From an uncultured Bacteroidales bacterium (lineage in GTDB: Bacteria > Bacteroidota > Bacteroidia > Bacteroidales > GCA-2748055), in NCBI GenBank assembly GCA_963710385.1, contig CAVQAB010000002.1:11880-75879 (forward strand): 64,000 bases of DNA, in the 5' to 3' direction. Positions 4,360-54,183 of this stretch are shown piece after piece. The translations under genes were made by a program, and so were the position numbers. Every line of letters starts with the position of its first letter. Positions within the stretch are counted from its first letter, which is position 1. Under the pieces are notes generated by a model. That model was not told the origin of the DNA. It did no database searches and was given only the letters and a program-made list of their open reading frames with translations.

Positions 4360-7177
4360 ATGCAAATTATGCCAGCTATCAACGACCAGGAAATACATAT
4401 AAAAGGAGCCAGGGTTCACAACCTGAAAAATGTGGAATTAAGGATTCCCACGAGACCAGATGGTGGTGATTACCGGCCTATCAGGTTCGGGTAAATCCTC
4501 CCTGGCATTTGATACGCTTTATGCTGAGGGTCAGCGACGTTATGTGGAGAGTCTGTCAGCTTATGCCAGGCAATTTCTGGGTCGGATCGATAAACCGGAT
4601 GTGGACTTTATCCATGGCATCCCACCGGCGGTGGCCCTGGAACAGACGGGTGAATACCCGGAATCCCCGTTCCACGGTTGGTACTTCCACGGAGATCTAT
4701 GATTATATCAAGCTGCTGTTTGCCCGGATAGGTAAAACCTATTCCCCGGTTTCAGGTAAACTGGTCAAGAAGCATTCAGTTACCGATGTGGTGGATTATA
4801 TCCTTGAAGCAGAACGGAGGAAAGCAGACTGGTGATCCTCTCAACGGTTTGCCTGAAGGCAGAAAAGGATCTTGATTATCAGCTGGATATCTTTATTCAG
4901 CAGGGCATGACCCGTGCCATGGTGGATAACAAGATTATTCAGTTGGAAGATCTGAAAGATGGGAGAACCAAGCCCTGAACACTTACTTGCTTAGATCTGG
5001 TGGTGGACAGGATTGTGGTTCAGAAGGATGAAGAATCGGTGAGCAGGTTTGGAGATTCGGTTCAGACTGCTCTGCAGATGGGGCATGGCCATTGCATGAT
5101 CTGGGATCCTGAAAATGGAAAAATCTGAGGAGTTTTCCACCCGGTTTGAAGCCGATGGAATGGAGTTTGAGGAACCTTCAGAACACCTGTTCAGTTTTAA
5201 CAATCCACTTGGTGCCTGTCCTGTCTGTGAAGGATATGGAAAGGTCATGGGTATTGATGAGGATCTGGTTATTCCCGACAAGCGACTTTCGGTTTATGAT
5301 GATGCGGTGGTATGCTGGAAAGGGGAGAAGATGAAGAGGTGGAAGGAAAGCCTGGTGATGAAGGCTGATCAGTTTGATTTTCCTATTCATACACCCTATT
5401 ATCAGTTGACCGATGAACAGCGTAATCTGCTTTGGAAAGGAAACAGGTATTTCAGAGGGATTGAACCGTTTTTTCAAACACCTGGAAGAGAAAGAAATAC
5501 AAGATACAGTACAGGGTGATGCTTTCCCGTTACCGAGGGAAGACCATCTGTCCGGAATGCAACGGAAGCCGATTGAGAAAGGAAGCCAGACTATGTGAAG
5601 GTGGGAGGAAAGACCATCAGTGATCTGGTGAAACTTGCCCGTGTCGGAGCTGGAAGGATTCTTTGAGAAGCTGAAACTCAGCCAAGAAAGGAAACTGAAA
5701 TTTCAGAACGTCTGCTGAAGGAGATCAACAGCCGACTGCATTTTATGACCAGTGTGGGCTTGGTTACCTGACGCTGAATCGCTTATCATCTACCCTGTCG
5801 GGAGGGGAGAGTCAGCGGATCAACCTGGCCACTTCCCTGGGAAGCAGCCTGGTGGGCTCACTCTATATCCTGGATGAACCCAGCATTGGATTGCATTCCA
5901 CGGGATACAGAACAGCTGATCGGTGTACTCAGGGAGCTGCAGCAACTGGGCAATACAGTGGTGATCGTAGAACATGATGAAGAGATCATCAGGTCTGTCA
6001 GACCATGTGATTGATATGGGTCCCATGGCAGGAAGGCATGGGGGTGAAGTGGTTTTTCAGGGAGACCACAAGGCGCTTCTGAAGGAGAAGAAGAGTCTTA
6101 CAGCCAGGTATATGAATGGATTGGAAATGATTCCAGGTCCCACAGACACGGCGAAAATGGAACAACTACCTGGAGTTGAAAGGGGCCCGGGAAAACAATC
6201 TAACGGGAATCGATGTGAAGTTTCCCTTGAATATCATGACAGTGGTCACCGGAGTAAGCGGATCGGGAAAATCCAGCCTGGTAAGTTCTATCCTCTATCC
6301 GGCACTCAATAAACAATCTGAATGGTTCAGGTGAAAAACCAGGGAAACATGACCTCCTGACCGGGGATCTGCACCTGTTGGACCGGGTAGAATTTGTGGA
6401 CCAGAATCCCATAGGAAAATCTTCCCGTTCAAATCCGGTAACCTATCTGAAAGCTTTTGATGAGATCCGAAAACTGTATGCCGCTCAGCAGGCTTCGAAA
6501 ATCAATGGATTATAAGGCTTCCCATTTTTCGTTTAATATTGATGGAGGCAGGTGTGATGAATGCCAGGGAGAGGGTGAGATCAAGGTGGAGATGCAGTTC
6601 ATGGCCGATGTAAGGCTTATCTGCGACAGTTGTCATGGCAAGCGTTTCAAGGATGATATTCTCCAGGTTGCTTATAAGGAGAAAAGTATTTTCGATGTAC
6701 TTGAAATGACCATCAATGAGGCCATTGAGTTTTTCAGCAAATCGGAGGAGAGCTACTGAAAAAAGAATCGTAAAGAAGATTAAGCCTCTTCAGCAGGTGG
6801 GTCTTGGATATGTGAAGCTGGGACAGTCTTCCAGTACCCTAAGCGGGGGGGAGAGTCAGCGGATCAAACTGGCTTTTTTCCTGAGCAAAGAATCGGAGGA
6901 GGAGAAAGTTCTTTTCATCTTCGATGAACCGACCACTGGTTTGCACATGCATGATATTTCATTGCTGCTATCATCCTTTGAATCGTTACTGGGGAAAGGT
7001 CATTCAGTCCTGGTTATTGAGCATAACCTGGAGGTGATCAAATATGCGGATTGGATCATTGACCTGGGACCGGAAGGAGGCGATCAGGGAGGCACCGTTG
7101 TTTTTGAAGGCATCCCTGAGGATATTGGACTCCATGATTCTCATACTGGAACCTACCTGCGTTCCAAACTCAATTAA
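4360..7177 (+). pseudogene. uvrA: Excinuclease ABC subunit UvrA, broken into many pieces (more than 10 frame changes plus in-frame stops)
   Basis: The pieces tile the whole UvrA sequence across three frames:
- 'IKGARVHNLKNV'
- '[38 protein letters not shown]'
- '[24 protein letters not shown]'
- 'FSFNNPLGACPVCEGYG'
- 'LSGGESQRI' (twice)
- 'FSFNIDGGRCDECQGEGEIKVEMQFMADV'
- 'FIFDEPTTGLH'
- 'IDLGPEGGDQGG'. Confidence 0.9.
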
Positions 7178-8439
7178 AAGAAGTAGTAAACTCCCGCAAG
7201 TGCCCTAAGGTTTCCTACGGTAATGGTCTGATCCGGGACAAAGAATTCATTGTAATCGCTACCGTATGCAGCCTGGGTGTATTCTAACTCAAGGGCCAAT
7301 CTAACCTTACCGGAATTATAGACAATCCGCGGTGATATCCTATACATAGTATGAATGTCTGTGGCCAGTCCGTAAACTGCATTGTTTGGGTCTGACATGG
7401 CTTCCTTGGTTCCAGAATTGTATAAGATCCCGCCAAATACGCCCACCTGGGGATTTCCATTGGTATGTAGTTCACCCCAATAGGCCATGCTTTTCAGAGG
7501 TGTGTAGGATTGCTCGCCAGTAGTGGGATTGCTTATATCTTTTATTCCAAATCCGCTGATGGCCAGTACATCGGAAATATTCTCACCATACCTGACCTGT
7601 GCTTTTAGGGTAATGGGGCCAGTGGTAATTTTGGAGAATGCCATGGCTGTGATGCCATGGACCAATTCCTGAACCTTGTAAATCTCATCAGGCCCCATCA
7701 CACTTTCCAGGCGTGGGGCAATGGTCTTATAGGCCAGGCCTGCGCCTGCGATGAAGCCAGTTCCGGTGTCAGCATTTTTTCTATTAAAATGAACCTGAAA
7801 ATGCATATCCGGAGTGGCCGAATTCCTGATGTATTTACAGTTTGGCCCGTCAACCCCTCTTGAAGTGTAGTCCACCTGTGATAATGCAGCTGCAACGATC
7901 TTCAGACTACCGAAATTGAATGTAAACCTGAGTTGTGGATTCCTGGCAAAAGATTGCATTGGAGCCCCGGTGTTAAAGGATACTGTACCTGGAAAACAAT
8001 CTGTGACGAACAGTGGATTCCAGGTATATCCTGCCAGGGATTCAAAATGGGTCCAGTTCAGTTTCACAAAAGCATGTCTCATTCTGAACAGGTTGATATT
8101 GTCATTGGCCTGGGCAAAGAAATCACCTTCGATCAAACCCGATGTCCTGGCACCAAATGCATCGGGACCCGTAATCTTTCCCGATAACCTGGACTGTATG
8201 GCCAGTATGTTATAAGTGGATTTTGAATTGATGTCATTTCCGTACTCATCCAGTTTTTCGGGTGCCGGCCAAAGAAGAAAATGACCTTCTCTTGCACATA
8301 TGGTTTGTCTGGAATCTACAAAAAAATCATTCTTGACGAATCCGGAGAATTTGATTCCAAAACCTGCCTCATCCTGAGCGCTGATGGTCAGGATGGATAA
8401 GAATGACAATAACATAGAATAGATGTGGGAGCGTTTCAT
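7174..8439 (-). CDS. Outer-membrane beta-barrel, porin-like protein
   Basis: Intact 421-aa ORF with signal peptide 'MKRSHIYSMLLSFLSILTISAQ'. It has alternating beta-strand-like sequence rich in aromatic residues and Gly, and a C-terminal 'GVYYFF'. It is the last gene of the symporter operon. Confidence 0.6.
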   Translation of the reverse strand: MKRSHIYSMLLSFLSILTISAQDEAGFGIKFSGFVKNDFFVDSRQTICAREGHFLLWPAPEKLDEYGNDINSKSTYNILAIQSRLSGKITGPDAFGARTSGLIEGDFFAQANDNINLFRMRHAFVKLNWTHFESLAGYTWNPLFVTDCFPGTVSFNTGAPMQSFARNPQLRFTFNFGSLKIVAAALSQVDYTSRGVDGPNCKYIRNSATPDMHFQVHFNRKNADTGTGFIAGAGLAYKTIAPRLESVMGPDEIYKVQELVHGITAMAFSKITTGPITLKAQVRYGENISDVLAISGFGIKDISNPTTGEQSYTPLKSMAYWGELHTNGNPQVGVFGGILYNSGTKEAMSDPNNAVYGLATDIHTMYRISPRIVYNSGKVRLALELEYTQAAYGSDYNEFFVPDQTITVGNLRALAGVYYFF

Positions 8440-9275: not shown

Positions 9276-10928
9276 TCAGGAATTTCCTGATTTCAATTGG
9301 AGTTTCTTTGGTAAGTTTTGATACAACAATATGTACTATAATGGCCAATGGTGCGCCGATCCAGGCAAAGTACCAGGCTTCTAAGCCAATAGCTGATGAA
9401 TTCGTGAGCCGGAAGTGTAACTCCGGATTTACCCGCGATAAAGTAGGTAATTGCAATCACGGATACAATCCCACCTGTAATCAGACCGGCAATGGCCCCT
9501 GATTTGTTGGATCCGCTCCACCATATACCTAACAGGAACAGTGGGAAAATGGTACATCCTGCCAGCGAAAAGGCTACTGCAACCAGCTGACCAATCAAAG
9601 CAAAATTCTTCAGTGCAATGAGCGTCACGATGATGGCCATCAGAATGGTTCCCAGGCGGGCATAGAGCAATTGCCTTTTTGGACTGGCATCCGGATTGAT
9701 TACCTTCACATAGAGGTCATGGGCAAATGCAGATGATCCTGCTACCAGTAGACCGGATACTGTTGAAAATGCTGCTGAAACCCCGCCAGCAGCAAGTAAT
9801 CCGACAATCAGGGGATGGATGTTCCCCAGTTGAGCCGTATATACTACAATGGCATCCTTGGCAAGTGTTCCTACTTCCGGATGTGCCGAAAGAATCTTTC
9901 CGAAAGCGGCATATGCCGGTGCACTCCAGTAGAGAATACAGATGAAGAAAAGGCCCCATACTACAGACCATCTTGCATCCCTTGCCTTTGGCACTACATA
10001 GAACCGTTGAATTACGTGGGGCAGACCTGCGGTTCCTATCATCAGAGAAAAGGCAATGGCAATCCACTGGAAGAACGTCTTTCCGGTGGGAGGATCCCAC
10101 GGCATGGCAAATTCAGGTGCCGGGACAATGGCATAGTCATGCCCCAGTGAATTTATCAATTCCTTGGTTTCATTGATGGGCAAGCCAGAGATGACATCAG
10201 ATACCACGGATCCGTATCCGATCTGGGGTACCAGCCAGAAATAGTCGAATTTAGCTGTGAGGATAAACAGTGGAATCAGAAATGAAATAATGATGATCAC
10301 ATACTGGATCTGCATATTCTTGGTAACTCCCAGCATCCCGGAAATGAGTGTATAGGTCAGTACCACCAGTCCCCCAATAATTACGGCCCAGGTGTAATCA
10401 ATACCCATCACCCATTTGAACATGAGGCCGATTCCTCCAAACTGACCCACACAATAGGATATAGAGATAAGAATGGCAATGATAGCTCCTACTGCTCTTA
10501 GGTCTTTAGAATAATAGCGGTCGCCGATAAAATCGGCAGCAGTATATTTTCCGTATTTTCGGATCTGTCCGGCCATGAGGATAAGCAACAGGACATAACC
10601 ACCGGTCCAGCCTACGACATAGGCCAGTCCATGATAACCTGAACCATACATCAGTGCTGCCATTCCCAGGAAGGAAGCTGCACTCATCCAGTTGGAAGCA
10701 ATGGCCATTCCAGAACCTACCTTGGAAATTCCTCGTTCCTGCTGCATAGAAATCAGTGGTGTCCTTTGCCCGGAAGACCATGCCCACCAGCACAAATAAG
10801 ATAAGGATGGTAATCAGGATAATGGCCGGTCCGACTTTGAAACTTCCTTCAAGTTGGGTGGCTGCAGTTGCAGCGTTGGAGCAAATTGGGAAAAGACAAT
10901 ATAGATGAGTGGAAATAGTATTTTTTCA
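9256..10928 (-). pseudogene. Sodium:solute symporter (SSS family, VC_2705/ActP-like large subunit), at least 3 frameshifts
   Basis: Core ORF 9293-10795 is polytopic with SSS-like sequence ('GMAIASNWMSAASFLGMAALMYGSGYHGLAY'). The N-terminus ('LVGMVFRAKDTTDFYAAG') and C-terminus ('AWYFAWIGAPLAIIVHIVVSKL') lie in other frames. Confidence 0.8.
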
Positions 10929-41250: not shown

Positions 41251-43426
41251 TTACAGGTTCTCAAGGATAAAATTGGTCATGCGTGTATAAAGGTGAATGG
41301 AAGTGTTCCCGCCTCTAATACCGTGGTTTTTATTGGGGTAGAACTGCATGTCAAATTGCTTTTCAGCCTGCACCAGCGCTTCTACGAAATCCATTGAATT
41401 CTGGTAATGTACATTGTCATCTGCACTTCCATGGATCAACAGGAACCTGCCCTGGAGGCCTCGGGCAAAGTGTATGGGTGAGTTTTGATCATAGCCCTCA
41501 GGATTCTCCTGTGGAGTGCGCATAAACCGCTCTGTATAGATCGTATCGTAGTATCTCCAGTTTGTAACGGGAGCTACTGCAATCCCCATCTTATAAGTGC
41601 CCTTTCCTTTGGTCATACAGAGACTGGTCATGAATCCGCCATAACTCCAACCGAAGATTCCTATACGTTGCGCATCAATATAGTTTTGTGATCCGAACCA
41701 TTGTGCGGCTTCAACCTGGTCAATGGTTTCCAGTTTTCCAAGAGTCAGGTAGGTGGCTTTCCTGAATTCTTCTCCACGACCGTTGGTCCCCCTGTTGTCC
41801 ACGCACGCTATGATATAACCCTGCTGAACCAACATTTGGAACCAGGCTCCCCTGCGACCCCATGAATCGGTAACATTCTGTGACTCTGGTCCTCCATATA
41901 CGTAGATAAAAAGGGGATATACTTTATTTGGATCGAAATCATTGGGTTTGATCATCCATGCATTCAAATTCTGACCGCTTGCAGTAGGAACCGTAAGGAA
42001 TTCAGTTTTTGCATATCCATAATCAACAACATTACTCTGAAGTGCGGCATTTTCTTCAAGAACCCGGATCAGTTTCCCCTTCTGGTCGTGCAGGGTGATA
42101 AATGGAGGTGTGTTGGCCGATGAGTGGTTGAGAATATAATAGTTAAAGGTTGTGCTAAAATCGGCAGTGTTGGTTCCAGATTCTGTACTTAATTTCTTTT
42201 TCCTGGAACCATCCAGTTTAATGGAATAGACATGCTTTTCAATGGAAGATTCTTCATAGGAGGTATAGTAGAGCCTCTGTTGTTTTTCATCATAACCAAG
42301 GAATGCATCAACATCATACTCACCTGAAGTGATGGGATTTATCTTTCCGGTGTTGAAGTTGTAGTGGTAAAAGTGGAAATATCCCTCCTTTTCACTATTT
42401 AATGATGAAGCTTTCCCCATCTTGCAGGTAGGTACTGGTATTGTCTGATGCTTCTGAAATATATGAATCGTTCTTCTCGGAATAAACCACTGTTGAAGTT
42501 CCTGAAACAGCATGGGCATGTAATATATCCAGGCGGTTCTGTCTCCGGTTCAAGCGCATGATGCTCAGCACTTCCGGATCGCTGGTCCATTTAATTCTTG
42601 GGATGTATTGGTCCTGCTCTTCACCAATATCCATGGATGTGGCTTTGCCCGACGCAAGGTCATAGACATGGATGGTGACCACCGAATTCAACTCACCTGC
42701 TTTGGGATACTTAAACTTATAACTGGATGGATAAAGGTCACCGAACAGGGTCATATGAAACTCCTGGACATTTCGTTCATCAAAGCGGTAAAATGCAATT
42801 TTATTACCATCTGGTGACCAGCAATAAGCCTGCGAAAATCCGAACTCCTCTTCATATACCCAGTCAGGCGAACCGTTGATGATCTTATTTTTCACTCCAT
42901 CGAATGTGATCTGCATTTCCTCATCCTTAGTAAGATCTCTGACAAACAGGTTGTTATTTCGCACAAAAGCCACACGGTCTCCCCGGGGTGAAAAGGTCCC
43001 AAGTTGTTGCTTTCCTTTACTGGAGACAGGAATCAACTCCCCTGTGTCCATATCATATACGTAATACGATGCCAGATAGGAGTGGCGATAAATCTGTTCA
43101 TGCCCGGTCTCCAAAAGGACCTTATCCTCCGAAGTATTGAAACTATATCCGCTGAACTGATTAATCTCCGGGAAATCTGCAGCATCAAACAGTGTTTCGA
43201 CAATCTCACCTGTTCGGTAACTGTATTTATTAATGCGGGTTTTTTCCTGAACAGTATAGTGTACTCCATCATTCATCGAGTTTAGTCCTTCCAGTACATT
43301 GGCTGTGAATTTCTCCGCATGGTAAATGTCACTAAGGGTGATGGTGGAAGTGGACTGACCAGATAGCGATGGGGTCAATGCTATCAACAGAAGTAGTGGA
43401 TAAATTTTTTGGGATAAGCTGTTCAT
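41251..43426 (-). pseudogene. Dipeptidyl-peptidase IV (S9B family), one frameshift near 42400
   Basis: The N-terminal beta-propeller ORF is 42395-43426 and has a signal peptide. The C-terminal catalytic ORF is 41251-42519 with 'GIFGWSYGGFMTS' and 'HGSADDNVHYQNS'. Confidence 0.88.
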
Positions 43427-43541: not shown

Positions 43542-44278
43542 ATGAAACGTTTACTTATCATATTACCAAGCCTGCTCCTGGCCCTGGCAGGTTGCTACAG
43601 AGAACCTTACGCCGATGCATTTATATCTCCCAGCCCCGCTTATGTTGGGGAGGACATCCATTTTACCAATACCTCCTCGAATACCGATTATGTGGAGTGG
43701 GATATGGGTGACGGTACAAGCGCATCAGCTTTCAATGTGAGCCATTTTTACTATGATCCCGGATCTTACCATGTTAATTTGAGTGCATATGGACGCAATG
43801 GTGATGTCAGTGTTGCATCATTTGTTGTGGATGTCATTGGCTCAGAATTAGAGATTGTTGTGAGGGAGGTCCTCGATGAATATTATGTTGAAGGAGCCAG
43901 TGTTATCCTCTACACCAATTCTGGATGACTGGGCTCAATTTTGAGAATCCGGTGGCTGAAGAACAGTTTACAAACCAGTACGGTGAATGTTATTTCTCCA
44001 ACCTGAGCTACCAGACTTACTTTGTGGATGTGTGGGAAGCCAGTCATGATAACTGGGCCATGGGAGAAGAAGATCCCGGGTTATGGATCGAAACACAAGA
44101 ATTACCTGGTGGATGGGACCACACGTTCATCGCTTACGTTGACTACTACGAATCTACAACCAAGAAGGCTGCAACAGTGGCAAGGCCTGCTACAAGAGAG
44201 CTGAGAGCTCCATTGAAAAACAGAGGGGAAGAGAGGCCTATGAAGGATAATAAATTCAGTATCAAAAAAGAGAAATAA
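43542..44278 (+). pseudogene. PKD-domain lipoprotein, one frameshift near 43925
   Basis: Lipobox 'LLALAGC' and a PKD-like 'FTNTSSNTDYVEWDMGDGTSASAFNVSHFYYDPGSYHVNLSA'. The second half is ORF 43925-44278. Confidence 0.65.
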
Positions 44279-44320
44279 TTAGCAACCTACAAATCAATAT
44301 AAAAAATTAATATATTTGCA

Positions 44321-44352
44321 GCCCTGGAAGCCCTCGCGTTTCCAGGGCTTTT
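44321..44352 (+). terminator. Intrinsic terminator after the PKD lipoprotein gene
   Basis: GCCCTGGAA / TTCCAGGGC 9-bp stem with a 10-nt loop, then TTTT. Confidence 0.7.
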
Positions 44353-44358
44353 AGCTTG

Positions 44359-44509
44359 GCTCAATTTTGGCAGGCCGACCGTTAAGAAAATGTCCGGTGG
44401 ACATTTTTAGGGAGGAGCCAGCCAGAGGGTAGGCCAATTCCGCCATCCATTGTTTGGGATGAATATTTCGGTTTTGGCAATAAGTTCTTTAATAAGTTAT
44501 AACAATATT
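44359..44509 (+). repeat. tRNA-Leu-associated structured repeat, copy A
   Basis: The core 'GGCCGACCGTTAAGAAAATGTCCGGTGGACATTTTTAGGGAGGAGCCAGCC' is identical to copy B. It also contains 'AGGCCAATTCCGCCATCC'. The period to copy B is 150 nt. Confidence 0.85.
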
Positions 44510-44663
44510 GCCCAGATGGCAGGGCCGACCGTTAAGAAAATGTCCGGTGGACATTTTTAGGGAGGAGCCAGCCTGCAGGGCAGGCCAATTCCGCCATCCA
44601 ATGATTGGGATGAATATTTCGGATTTGGCGAAAGAGTTCTTTAATAAGTTAGTACATCTAAAT
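44510..44663 (+). repeat. tRNA-Leu-associated structured repeat, copy B, abutting tRNA-Leu(CAG)
   Basis: It starts with GCCCAGATGGC, which equals nt 1-11 of the following tRNA. It contains GGCCAATTCCGCCATC, whose reverse complement includes tRNA nt 6-19. Confidence 0.85.
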
Positions 44664-44750
44664 GCCCAGATGGCGGAATTGGTAGACGCGCTAGTTTCAG
44701 GGACTAGTATACGCAAGTATGTGCAGGTTCGAGTCCTGTTCTGGGCACCA
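44664..44750 (+). tRNA. tRNA-Leu (anticodon CAG), CCA encoded
   Basis: Manual fold:
- Acceptor stem GCCCAGA/TCTGGGC.
- Anticodon stem CTAGT/ACTAG with loop TTCAGGG; the anticodon is at 44698-44700.
- Long variable arm.
- T-arm GCAGG-TTCGAGT-CCTGT.
- 3' end ACCA. Confidence 0.93.
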
Positions 44751-44760
44751 GTCAATTTAA

Positions 44761-44801
44761 AAGCCTTTGTGATTTAATAGATTACAGAGGCTTACTTTTT
44801 T
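44761..44801 (+). terminator. Intrinsic terminator after tRNA-Leu(CAG)
   Basis: A 13-bp stem AAGCCTTTGTGAT / ATTACAGAGGCTT (two G-U pairs) with a 7-nt loop, followed by ACTTTTTT. Confidence 0.75.
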
Positions 44802-45030
44802 GGGGATAATCCAATGCTTAACCCTGAAATCTGTAAAAATTTATAAATTGATACTTCTATCTTTAATGCTATAAAGGACACATCAGGACCTTCCAGTTTC
44901 AATTCGAATTGATGAATGAAATTCATGAAAAAATAAATTCCTGATAGTTCATCATCAGAAAAACTTAATTTCATGTCCTGTGTTATGAATTCAAGTGGAT
45001 CAATGATCGATGTGAAGAAATGATTCAATA

Positions 45031-48000
45031 ATGAAAAAGGTTTTTTTATTTGGGATGTTGATTACTGTGGTGGTTGAAATTTACGCTCAGGAACGCATAC
45101 TTTCCACCCAGTCAGTCCAGCAAAGAAGGCAGGTGATAAGTATACTGCCGCCCGAGAAGGATAAAGAGTTCGCAGAAGCTTTCGCCCGTCGGAATAATCT
45201 TCCGGTAAGAATGAATTACAAGAATGGCACCGTTCTTGAAATCAGGAGAATTACAGAAAACGGTCTTCCACTCTATTATAAAACTCTATAATTTAAACGC
45301 AGCTAAGACACTGTCTACCAATGAAGTATGGGGTGGAGGTGCGCTTGGGTTGGACCTTTCAGGCGCCGGTATTGTTGTGGGTGTATGGGATGGTGGGGGA
45401 ATTCTTACTACACACAAGGAATTCGAAGGTAGGGCCAGGATGATCGATGGGGATAATGATCCTGACAGTCATGCGACACATGTGGCTGGAACCATTGGAG
45501 CAGCCGGTAATGAAACCAGTGCAAGAGGCATGGCAAATAAGAGCACCCTTGAAGGATATAATTGGGATAACGATAATGCAGAGATGAGCATTGCGGCACA
45601 ACAGGGATTGCTTATTTCGAACCACTCCTATGGGTATGCTCAGGGCTGGGAATACAATTATGACAAAGATCGTTGGGAATGGTGGGGAGATGAGAGCGTG
45701 AGCGAAACTGAGGACTATAAATTTGGATTCTATGGGGAAGATGCGAGGGCATGGGATGATATTGCCTATAGTAATCCCCGATATCTGATCGTTAACTCTG
45801 CCGGCAATGACAGAGGAGATGGACCTGCACAGGGAGCCAATCACTTCGTATTTTCAAACAACTCCTGGTCACCCAGTACAACCGTCAGGGATCTGGACGG
45901 AGGGATTGGTGGTTTTGATTGTCTCGGAAGCCAATCTACAGCAAAAAATATACTCACTGTTGGAGCAGTTGATGATATTCCCGGGGGTTATACAAACAAT
46001 AGTGACGTAGATTTGGCTTCTTTTTCAGCGTTTGGTCCCACAGATGATGGCAGAATTAAACCTGATATTGTGGGGAACGGGATCAATCTCTACTCAACGA
46101 ATTCAGAAAATGACACCAGCTACATTTACAATTCAGGTACATCCATGTCAAGTCCCAATATAGCAGGATCACTGGCTTTGTTGCAAGAGCACTATCGCAA
46201 AATAAAAGGAAGGTTCATGTACGCTTCATCTCTTAAGGCTATTGTAATACACACTGCAGATGAAGCAGGAAACCCGGGGCCGGATTATAAATATGGATGG
46301 GGGCTCATGAATACGGCAAAGGCAGCCAGATTGATTTCAGAGGCCGAAGGTGATGGTATCGAATACGATACACTATCAAACAATGAGTTAATAAAATCCT
46401 CTCTGTTCAGTACAGGTGAGGAATCCATTAAAGTGACCATAGTTTGGGCGGACCCTCCAGGGGAATCCTCCGAAGCACAGCTGGATCCAACCAGCAGGAA
46501 ACTAGTAAATGATCTGGATATCAGGTTAACAAGACTGATTGATGGAATGGAGTTCAAACCATATATTTTGAATCCTGTAAATCCCAATAAACCAGCCGAG
46601 TCAGGAGACAACCAGCGTGATAATGTGGAACAGATATACATAAATTCTCCTGTGAAGGGTTTCTATGAAATATCGATTTCACATAAAGCATCGCTTACAG
46701 GAAATGAACAACCGTATTGCATCATCGTATCCGGATTAAGTAAGGACTTTATAGCCAGTGGATTCATCGAGAAAACAGAAAATAATGGGGATATCATTCT
46801 CTCTTCGGCCGATATATATATTAATGACATGGAGGTTGAATGGCTCATCAATCCTGAGAATGAACAGCCGGTGTCGCTTTCTTTTGATTTTTTTGATACG
46901 GAACTGGATAATGATGTTTTATCGGTATATGACGGGGATAGTGATTTGGCTCCACTTATCGGCAGGTTCAGTGGATCTTTACCTGATTCAGATACCCTGA
47001 TACGTTCCACAGGTGGGGAATTGTTTATTACATTCAAGTCGAATGAGAGTGTTAACCGGCATGGGATTTCTCGGTAAATACTGTACGGTTGCACCGGAGG
47101 GTAACTATTCTATAATTGGTGAATCCTTTCCCTGTGAATTGTCAGTAGAGACCTTTTTTGCCATTGGACAGGAAGGTGCAAGTTATAGCTGGGCATCGGA
47201 CCAGGCATGGCAATGGACAGGAAAATCAGCCAACGGAATCGACCTGCAGATAGGTGAAATACAGGATAAGCTCCGAATGACCCCAATGAACAGGTGCGGC
47301 AATGGAGTTGAATCGACATTGGATATCATTCCACTTCAAAGTGTACCTGAACTCAACACATTTGAGGGTGATATCATGCCCTGTGCGCATCTCCCCACCA
47401 TGTTAACTGTAAATGAACATCCGGGTGTAAGCTATGAATGGGAGCTGCCTACCGATTGGCTTGGCAACAGCGAATCGGAAACATTAAATTATATACCTTC
47501 GAACACTGAAGGTGATATTATAGTAACTGCGCGCAATGCGTGTGGTGTGAGCAATCCGTTATTAATAGAACTTTCCGTGCTGGATATCCCTGATTTTGAA
47601 AGTATTCAAACGGAACAAGTCCCTCCCTGTGAATTCAGTATTCAAGAGTTCTTTGTGGATTCCAGACCGGGATATAACTACTACTGGGAGGCTCAGAATG
47701 ACTGGGAGATTCTTGGGGACACCCTATCAGATACAATTCTTGTGAGTGTAGGTGCATCAACGAATTTCCTATTTGTTACTGCCGAAAACAAATGTGGATC
47801 AAGGACTTCTAACAGGCTATTTTTAACAGCTTCTACACCGCCAGAACCATTGTTGAAGGAATCACGGACCTCCTATGGCTATCCCGAGTTAGAAGTCTCC
47901 AATTCTTCCGATTATTCACTGGTACGCTGGTATCTGAATGGTATTCCCTTGCAGGGTGATGCAAGCTTAAATAGAAGCCTTGTTGCAAACAGGAATGGAA

Positions 48001-53805: not shown

Positions 53806-53813
53806 TATCTTTG
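53806..53813 (+). promoter_or_regulatory. Candidate Bacteroidota -7 promoter box TATCTTTG upstream of repeat copy C and tRNA-Leu(GAG)
   Basis: Exact match to the TAnnTTTG consensus, with a TTTG at 53776-53779 in an AT-rich intergenic region. This is a motif match only. Confidence 0.3.
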
Positions 53814-53898
53814 CGGCAGTTGAGGAATGATAAGGTGATGGAGTAAAATAAATGCTAAGATTAACACGTTTAACTGACGTTCTTGTTAATTTAGAAAA

Positions 53899-54044
53899 GC
53901 CCAGGTGGCAGGGCCGACCGTTAAAGAAAATGTCCTGTGGACATTTTTAGGGAGGAGCCAGCCCAAGGGGGGCCTATTCCGCCACTCATTATATAGTAGG
54001 GTTGCTGAAATGGCACAGAGTTCTTAAAATGATGAATGTTTATT
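53899..54044 (+). repeat. tRNA-Leu-associated structured repeat, copy C, abutting tRNA-Leu(GAG)
   Basis: It starts with GCCCAGGTGGC, which equals nt 1-11 of the following tRNA. The core differs from copy B at 2 of about 51 positions. It contains GGCCTATTCCGCCAC, whose reverse complement includes tRNA nt 7-19. Confidence 0.85.
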
Positions 54045-54130
54045 GCCCAGGTGGCGGAATAGGTAGACGCGCTAGGTTGAGGGCCTAGTGACCGCTTTTG
54101 GTCGTGCAAGTTCGATTCTTGTCCTGGGCA
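54045..54130 (+). tRNA. tRNA-Leu (anticodon GAG), CCA not encoded
   Basis: Manual fold:
- Acceptor stem GCCCAGG/CCTGGGC.
- Anticodon stem CTAGG/CCTAG with loop TTGAGGG; the anticodon is at 54079-54081.
- Long variable arm.
- T-arm GCAAG-TTCGATT-CTTGT. Confidence 0.92.
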
Positions 54131-54183
54131 CAATGCAGCAATTAAGCTGCACACAATAATTTTAAAGCCAGAAGCAAAAGGTC

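Follow-up and report, generated by a model that had tools for sequence, protein, structure and literature searches.

Repeat units precede the tRNA-Leu genes of the window

We examined a 64,000-nt stretch of a contig from an uncultured Bacteroidales bacterium (CAVQAB010000002.1, positions 11,880–75,879; hereafter the window), in which a repeated element lies 5′ of two tRNA-Leu genes. ARAGORN and Rfam place both genes on the + strand, tRNA-Leu(CAG) at 44664–44750 and tRNA-Leu(GAG) at 54045–54131. Two direct units on the same strand precede tRNA-Leu(CAG), unit A at 44359–44509 and unit B at 44510–44663. They share an identical 51-nt core (44373–44423 in A, 44523–44573 in B), beyond which additional blocks are 79–92% identical, and both contain the 9-bp hairpin AAAATGTCC/GGACATTTT. 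For the 51-mer, shuffled sequences gave an expectation of 0 chance matches. Tandem Repeats Finder reported no repeat at the CAG locus; a direct-repeat search did detect the units and bore out an earlier description made from the letters alone (the sequence-only reading), which had proposed two direct repeats with a conserved core and a hairpin at this position.

The same description had held that copy B opens with the start of the tRNA and carries an inverted copy of part of it, and both matches are exact. The string TGCCCAGATGGC at 44509–44520 recurs at 44663–44674, so that unit B opens with tRNA nt 1–11 (the 5′ arm or ‘decoy 1’, GCCCAGATGGC, 44510–44520), while the corresponding 5′ arm of unit A is degenerate (ggctcaattttggc, 44359–44372). 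On the other side of the core, CCAATTCCGCCATC at 44434–44447 in unit A and 44585–44598 in unit B is 100% complementary to tRNA nt 6–19 (44669–44682). Within the unit B core, a helix that we term P2 is formed by CCGACC (44525–44530) and GGGAGG (44560–44565) and encloses the hairpin P3 (44537–44557, loop GGT; 44387–44407 in unit A). The minimum-free-energy fold places a small variable hairpin, P5 (GCCTGC-AGG-GCAGGC, 44571–44585), between core and anti-tRNA arm; its length and sequence differ between copies and it is weakly supported. A further local hairpin, P4 (CCATCC/GGGATG, 44594–44612; about 44443–44461 in unit A), has a 3′ arm that resembles tRNA nt 5–10 (‘decoy 2’), and a GTTCT motif follows at 44484–44488 in unit A and at 44636–44640 in unit B, the latter 28 nt 5′ of the tRNA.

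Shorter core words found one further site in the window, a third unit at 53899–53985 (+) upstream of tRNA-Leu(GAG), whose arms bear that tRNA’s own variants: the 5′ arm contains GCCCAGGTGGC (53899–53909) and the 3′ arm carries CCTATTCCGCCAC (53973–53985), which faces GGAATAGG in tRNA-Leu(GAG). Its P2 strands lie at 53914–53919 and 53950–53955, its P3 at 53927–53947, and a GTTCT motif at 54020–54024, 25 nt 5′ of the tRNA. These three copies are the only ones in the window.

A tRNA or tRNA-like gene was rejected as an identity for the units, since only the two true tRNAs were called in the window and none of the metagenomic units described below (at least 128 copies) was called either. Open reading frames (ORFs) across the units were only spurious ones that read through the tRNA, and the neighbouring genes encode peptidases and PKD-domain proteins, with no recombinase or integrase among them; on both counts the sequence-only reading was right. 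A search with Rfam cmscan (E ≤ 10, 43800–45300) returned the tRNA and chance matches only. The upstream repeat is real: it is not an artefact, a tRNA, a terminator or a known RNA family.

Each unit is built around a covarying module

Scanning metagenomes with two core words returned at least 128 copies on at least 120 contigs (loci carry L numbers below), and the element is common in sediment and wetland metagenomes. The conserved part is a module of ~62 nt that consists of helix P2 with tandem G·A pairs, an internal loop (GUUAAG/UA) and hairpin P3 with an nGU loop. Divergent copies taken with a sequence-only profile show P2 as CCGACC/GGGAGG, in which two Watson-Crick pairs are followed by tandem G·A/A·G and two more pairs, and the helix recurs in the compensatory variants CCGAGC/GCGA(A)GG, CCTGCC/GGCAGG, CCGACT/AGGAGG and CTCGCC/GGCGAG. 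Across 79 varied copies, 95.1% of the cells in P2 and P3 pair, with double changes in 12 of the 13 pairs; no shuffle out of 500 equalled the observed pairing, and slid alignments reached 38–58%. RNAalifold recovered P2 and P3.

P3 is especially variable in sequence, with 34 different stems among 77 unique hairpins, and nearly all of its pairs are Watson-Crick (590, with 4 G·T and 6 A·C). Counts of G·U versus A·C in P3 and in the antisense helix described below separate neither the two strands nor RNA from DNA. The tandem G·A of P2 is found on the + strand only, which identifies the + strand as the folding strand. Pairing at the 3′ end of the core (GG/CC) and P5 found no consistent support across the flank classes. 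At one locus (L024, about 1266–1340, − strand) a hairpin of ~29 nt is inserted in the 3′ strand of P2 (TTTTAGGG[ccaccgtcggcaagcctatggcggccaga]GGAGGAGCC).

At the gathering score, Rfam 15 gave no family match for the window region or for 23 loci drawn from every flank class. Likenesses to the kink-turn, hammerhead, twister and pistol motifs were considered and dropped, as no Rfam model matched. The covariation, together with the lack of an Rfam match, supports the earlier proposal of a structured element outside the known RNA families.

The antisense arm follows the tRNA-Leu gene that it precedes

To follow the tRNA-linked form, genomes were scanned with a class-specific junction word. This tRNA-Leu class was found in about 27 species-level metagenome-assembled genomes (MAGs) of Bacteroidota/Bacteroidales, with about 6 chance matches elsewhere. 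In every informative case a tRNA-Leu gene (CAG, GAG, TAA or CAA) lies downstream, co-oriented and 74–94 nt from the module (83 module/tRNA-Leu pairs downstream and co-oriented; 0 opposite), and the units form arrays of 1–4.

In most of these units the 5′ arm reproduces tRNA nt 1–11 exactly. Among 54 distinct units, the 3′ arm is Watson-Crick paired with tRNA nt 9–18 in at least 47 at each position, and it mostly also pairs with nt 6–8 and nt 19. Taken over nt 6–19, the antisense arm is 91.2% paired with its tRNA and shows double changes at nt 7, 13, 16 and 17, a level reached by 0–3 of 500 shuffles and not by slid alignments (18–47%). The arm fits the tRNA in cis and not another tRNA-Leu of the same genome, as seen for the CAG and GAG loci of the window and, in one MAG, for L136 and L153. 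The antisense arm thus stays complementary to its own tRNA through compensatory changes, and the pairing with the real tRNA that the sequence-only reading had drawn for one locus holds across the class. As the 5′ arm supplies nt 1–11 only, the complement of nt 12–19 has no partner inside the unit.

The small hairpin that follows the antisense arm has a 3′ arm like tRNA nt 5–10 and co-varies (CCAYCC/GGRTGG), with CCACC/GGTGG, CCTCC/GGAGG and CCAACC/GGTT-GG at other loci; in some lineages a copy of GGAATTGG replaces it as a second decoy. In the predicted fold of the full leader plus tRNA, the antisense arm pairs with tRNA nt 5–19 and decoy 1 pairs with the 3′ strand of the tRNA (z = −5.3).

Arms that derive from a tRNA might also be relics of a decaying partial tRNA-Leu duplicate or of an att site, and the module does occur in partial 3′ halves of tRNA-Gln (one locus, L082, has the real tRNA and two partial copies). 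We consider this origin very improbable, and it is largely refuted by the covariation: the arms follow changes in the tRNA and show no decay, the junction is identical at four isoacceptor loci, and neither ARAGORN nor Rfam called a tRNA in the units. An att-site remnant was likewise rejected, since what is repeated is the first 11 nt of the tRNA, at its 5′ end, the ‘island’ would measure about 140 nt, and the neighbours are the peptidase and PKD-domain genes, with no island and no integrase.

Promoter boxes stand 5′ of the arrays

On these contigs the canonical −7 box of Bacteroidetes (TAnnTTTG) is found some 10 nt 5′ of other tRNA genes. A perfect box lies at most 150 nt 5′ of the first unit in 29 of the 46 tRNA-Leu arrays, and in 13 of the 46 a co-oriented tRNA precedes the array by no more than 200 nt; only 2 of the 46 have a box that separates the first unit from the tRNA. 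These positions, upstream of the arrays and not between unit and tRNA, place the units in the 5′ leader or in an inter-tRNA spacer, and on this promoter context we infer that they are most likely co-transcribed with tRNA-Leu.

At the CAG locus the canonical −7 box TATATTTG (44311–44318, +) stands 5′ of the whole array, and at the GAG locus a perfect −7-type box, TATCTTTG (53812–53819, +), stands about 87 nt 5′ of the unit. Eleven related contigs keep the CAG-locus box, followed by CAGCCC and a hairpin, at the orthologous position, and the same arrangement occurs in L054, which carries no unit. The hairpin itself (44320–44349, +; a 12-pair stem followed by TTTT) resembles a terminator of the upstream gene and keeps its position at orthologous loci. 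Its 5′ arm abuts the −7 box, and a start a few nucleotides downstream would shorten the hairpin in the tRNA transcript.

GTTCT stands 24–29 nt 5′ of tRNA-Leu in 59 of 74 cases and at this distance from the 5′ ends of units in 43 of 69; it is rare 5′ of other tRNAs (2 of 14). The motif could belong to a promoter, signal processing or bind a protein. Just 5′ of the tRNA or of the units, TAnnTTTG was not enriched over shuffles, and a spacer promoter (TTTG ... TAAGTTWG) was rejected accordingly.

Two further readings of the transcript can be judged here. In one of them, put forward by the sequence-only reading, an independent small RNA of ~50 nt would run from GCCCAG to P3, which would act as an intrinsic terminator; a short T-run does follow P3 in the window copies, and GTTCT precedes unit 5′ ends as it does the tRNA. 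We find this scarcely credible. P2 requires a strand 3′ of P3, spans the hairpin and co-varies; ATCCCGC/GCGGGAT variants of P3 lack the T-run; the terminator scan flagged neither P3 nor any other terminator-like site within units; and no canonical promoter lies directly 5′ of them. An intrinsic terminator was rejected as an identity for P3 on the same evidence of scan, T-run-less variants and P2. The other reading, a tRNA-like or small RNA on the minus strand, had its motive in that strand’s content (tRNA nt 6–19, a CU-rich stretch and a hairpin). It was rejected as the primary reading: on the minus strand P2 would contain tandem U·C/C·U mismatches, the units are always co-oriented with tRNA-Leu and the promoters are on the + strand. 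Folding energies did not separate the strands.

Most copies of the module lie away from tRNA genes

About 22 of the at least 128 metagenomic copies have a tRNA-Leu downstream and about 80% are not beside a tRNA gene (among the matches listed), and the cores at these other sites show no complementarity to downstream sequence. The sequence-only reading had asked whether core hits always precede tRNA-Leu, which is so for the tRNA-Leu class and not for the core. It had also associated scattered cores without complementarity to their flanks with an ordinary repeat or a miniature inverted-repeat transposable element (MITE); most cores are scattered in just this way, but the tRNA-Leu class has tRNA-derived arms. 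Only that class has them, and the core is otherwise a dispersed module.

Several flank classes can be told apart. Some copies are closed by CCCCTCC/GGAGGGG, some cores are nested or in tandem, and some copies lie within tandem repeats of 7–8 nt. These short repeats flank the module on one or both sides (GGCAAAAG, GCAGAGC, CGGACTC, CTGCACAA and GTTTTGCA; loci L016, L008, L117, L110, L103, L102, L086, L019 and L021). In another class the module sits inside 3′ halves of tRNA-Gln. In these partial tRNA-Gln(CTG) copies it replaces the variable loop and is followed by a conserved, AT-rich sequence of ~60 nt; L082 holds the real tRNA-Gln(CTG) at 5532–5607 and two partial copies near 7860–7990 and 9870–10000, about 2 kb apart, and partial halves with the module also occur in L007, L089, L119 and L120. 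They resemble the repeated att-type tRNA fragments of a small integrated element.

A last class places the module inside repeats of ~510 nt that separate small, unrelated, co-oriented ORFs (L104:990–6385, L029, L047, L053, L049, L081 and L094). The repeats are structured, starting with ..yTAAC|GGCCCGG and ending with ..CCGTGTTAGGTG (GTTAGGT), and their modules lie on the strand opposite the ORFs, sometimes nested within a diverged self-copy. Among the proteins that the ORFs encode are hemerythrin, GNAT, AraC plus GyrI-like/Cass2, alcohol dehydrogenase (ADH), pentapeptide-repeat, metallo-beta-lactamase and isochorismatase proteins. In appearance these ORF arrays are integron-type cassette arrays whose attC-like sites are giant; no integrase was found on the cassette-array contigs.

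A 16S-23S spacer in L084 (991–1051, −) contains a sense copy 23 nt downstream of tRNA-Ala and ahead of the 23S rRNA, closed by a local stem (CACC..GCC / GGC..GGTG), and thus the module does occur in RNA in the + orientation. Copies that belong to neither the tRNA nor the cassette classes mostly share the orientation of the ORF that precedes them (35 versus 17). At tRNA-Glu(TTC) (L101:880–1200) the 3′ end of the gene is repeated directly, and after this copy come the module, the neighbouring tRNA segment in inverted form and a spacer; the 3′ end of tRNA-Gln(TTG) (L069:8020–8257) has the same architecture. In both of these cases (n = 2) the module is antisense to the tRNA, and the L101 unit is flanked by a 52-nt direct repeat made up of the terminator and the final 12 nt of the tRNA.

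The architecture at the tRNA-Glu and tRNA-Gln 3′ ends indicates a geometry that follows the gene end as DNA, and it keeps a DNA-level or mobile explanation alive. On such an explanation the folded + strand, as single-stranded DNA, would be a guided element or recombination site for an enzyme whose gene lies elsewhere and which recognises the fold, and the arms would direct insertion beside a gene end. The arms would then be programmable guides and the ~62-nt module the handle of a non-autonomous element that homes by base pairing to tRNA gene ends, 5′ for tRNA-Leu and 3′ for tRNA-Glu and tRNA-Gln. The geometry set by the gene end and not by the direction of transcription, the long direct repeats around single units, the purely Watson-Crick P3 with its conserved nGT loop, and the folding strand of the cassette arrays, which lies opposite the ORFs as does the bottom strand of attC, all fit such an element. 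We nevertheless judge both the recombination site and the guide function of the arms improbable. The non-Leu examples number just two, and the cassette copies probably stem from one ancestral insertion, which makes their orientation a single observation; elsewhere the module mostly has the orientation of the ORF upstream, and one copy is in sense within an rRNA operon. Clustering of the proteins encoded in the flanks of the copies gave no recurrent family, no linked enzyme and hence no candidate for the recognising enzyme, and viral contigs contained no core. Were the reading true, it would describe a new kind of nucleic-acid-guided insertion system.

Searching the literature for the core sequence strings gave chance primer matches only, and work on tRNA spacer RNAs and on Bacteroidetes integrons held nothing specific to the module. 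Elsewhere in the window, a DPP-IV/prolyl-oligopeptidase gene (41251–43426, −) is split into two overlapping ORFs in different frames, 42395–43426 encoding DPPIV_N and 41251–42519 the end of DPPIV_N plus Peptidase_S9, owing to a frameshift or pseudogene or else to an assembly error.

Units are old, and are gained and lost among relatives

On many contigs that retain the unit, the genes flanking the CAG locus share only about 75% identity with those of the window, which indicates that the class is old. Between the CAG and GAG loci of the window, cores have an identity of 0.95 and spacers of 0.66. Among relatives, units have come and gone, have been truncated and have multiplied: occupancy of the CAG and GAG loci differs from one relative to another, the GAG site is empty in L013 and filled, with a flanking 46-nt direct repeat, in L020 and L124, and decayed units have lost most of the core (L151:5750–5990) or are reduced to antisense arm and spacer (L135, 5′ of 7337). 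Units of one contig are near-identical. Spread from one locus to its neighbour can be accounted for by recombination of the repeated segments with the 5′ ends of tRNA-Leu genes, which are near-identical. A tRNA-targeting insertion, which the sequence-only reading had raised, is possible as the origin of the units; an empty and a filled site are indeed seen, but recombination between repeats explains them too.

The chief rival to the reading favoured below is a selfish or neutral modular repeat of the BOX/REP/Correia kind. Such a repeat would be tolerated in tRNA-Leu leaders, would spread and expand by recombination among its own direct repeats and the tRNA-Leu 5′ ends, and would have its arms kept uniform at the DNA level, by gene conversion or by quasi-palindrome template switching. 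In its favour are the many flank classes and the large majority of listed cores at non-tRNA sites, the nested and tandem cores, the variable copy number and patchy CAG/GAG occupancy, the empty and filled sites with their 46-nt repeat and the 52-nt repeat at tRNA-Glu, the decayed units, the near-identity of units per contig, and a P3 that is purely Watson-Crick. We nonetheless regard the explanation as unlikely, if one to be taken seriously. Core loop sequences that lack any repeat partner are kept across species whose flanking genes are about 75% identical, and P2 and P3 have undergone compensatory changes. Template switching over a 70-nt loop on arms of 10–14 nt would be unusual. No transposase, REP-associated tyrosine transposase (RAYT) or integrase recurs in the fetched flanks of the copies, and the window holds its three tRNA-Leu copies only.

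A cis-acting leader domain as the favoured reading

The units are a tRNA-Leu-specific class, in uncultured Bacteroidales, of a widespread module that is uncatalogued in Rfam. We favour, at a probability of about 0.45, the reading that they are a co-transcribed, cis-acting, structured leader or spacer domain whose antisense arm can capture the 5′ half of the nascent tRNA in competition with decoys. Each unit would comprise, in order, the 5′ arm (tRNA nt 1–11), the module, the 3′ arm antisense to nt 6/9–19 and a short decoy hairpin, and it would be made as part of the pre-tRNA, in the leader or in an inter-tRNA spacer. The antisense arm could then pair in three ways: with the 5′ decoy, so that a three-way junction closes; with the local decoy; or with the nascent tRNA, along its acceptor/D-arm strand. 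It might thereby delay or time the folding and 5′ processing of tRNA-Leu in cis, and the module may serve as a stable structural or protein-binding domain. The sequence-only reading had likewise envisaged a pre-tRNA leader with a decoy switch; the leader position accords with the promoters 5′ of the arrays, and the switch with the competing decoys, which include a second one in the spacer.

Several observations weigh against this leader model. In P3, G·U pairs are not favoured over A·C, although RNA would be expected to favour them, and action at the RNA level is suggested by context only. Helix P1, in which the 5′ arm would pair with the antisense arm, is compatible with the data and weakly informative. 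The variation between 1 and 4 copies resembles repeat dynamics more closely than it does a tuned regulator. The units at L101 and L069 and the antisense copies of the cassette arrays are unexplained by a leader. Finally, all loci were retrieved by exact core words, which overestimates conservation.

If the leader model is true, these would be bacterial tRNA genes that carry conserved antisense and decoy elements in their own precursor, gating folding or processing; to our knowledge, this level of tRNA control has not been described in bacteria. Regardless of function, an abundant ~62-nt motif with strong covariation is absent from Rfam, and cataloguing it would aid the annotation of uncultured Bacteroidota. 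Its contexts (tRNA leaders, an rRNA spacer, 3′ untranslated region-like positions and cassette repeats) also offer a tractable test of how structured modules move from one non-coding setting to another.

Comparison with known systems

The known systems nearest to the units are like them only in some respects. Integron attC sites share with the cassette class the position of the module in long repeats between small ORFs, the yTAAC...GTTAGGT ends and a folding strand opposite the ORFs. The attC sites are usually 57–141 nt long, whereas the cassette-array repeats measure about 510 nt, and the tRNA-Leu units differ from attC in having no R″/R′ boxes (RYYYAAC/GTTRRRY) and in not following ORFs.

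Pneumococcal BOX elements, enterobacterial repetitive extragenic palindromes and their mosaics (REP/BIME) and the Correia elements of Neisseria are likewise short, non-coding, stem-loop-forming and modular, with several flank classes and tandem or nested copies, and such repeats are often co-transcribed with neighbouring genes. Cores of the module are dispersed over many metagenomic contexts, and the 64-kb window has only the three tRNA-Leu copies. The units have no terminal inverted repeats, and no RAYT or transposase was found on the fetched flanks of the copies. A MITE was rejected: at one end of a unit stand 11 nt copied directly from the tRNA and at the other a spacer, and the flanking direct repeats, of 11–52 nt, include host flank. 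None of the BOX, REP/BIME and Correia families is known to have direct and inverted arms that are copied from, and co-vary with, the adjacent gene.

T-box leaders (RF00230) resemble the units in being structured leaders in cis that recognise a specific tRNA by pairing and form alternative helices. Mostly in Firmicutes, T-boxes regulate genes for aminoacyl-tRNA synthetases and amino-acid genes, and they pair in trans with the anticodon and the 3′ NCCA of the mature tRNA. The window element, in contrast, lies in the tRNA’s own leader and is complementary to acceptor/D-arm nt 6–19 of the tRNA in cis; the T-box covariance model gave no match within 43800–45300 (cmscan, E ≤ 10).

Another partial parallel is the 3′ external transcribed spacer (3′ETS) of E. 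coli glyW-cysT-leuZ, a segment of a pre-tRNA-Leu that acts as a small RNA sponge with a pairing function of its own. Both are non-tRNA parts of a pre-tRNA-Leu transcript that base-pair, the window element on the co-transcription favoured above. The 3′ETS of leuZ is an unstructured spacer that lies 3′ of the tRNA and pairs with small RNAs in trans, whereas the window element is folded and conserved, lies 5′ of the tRNA and is complementary to the tRNA itself.

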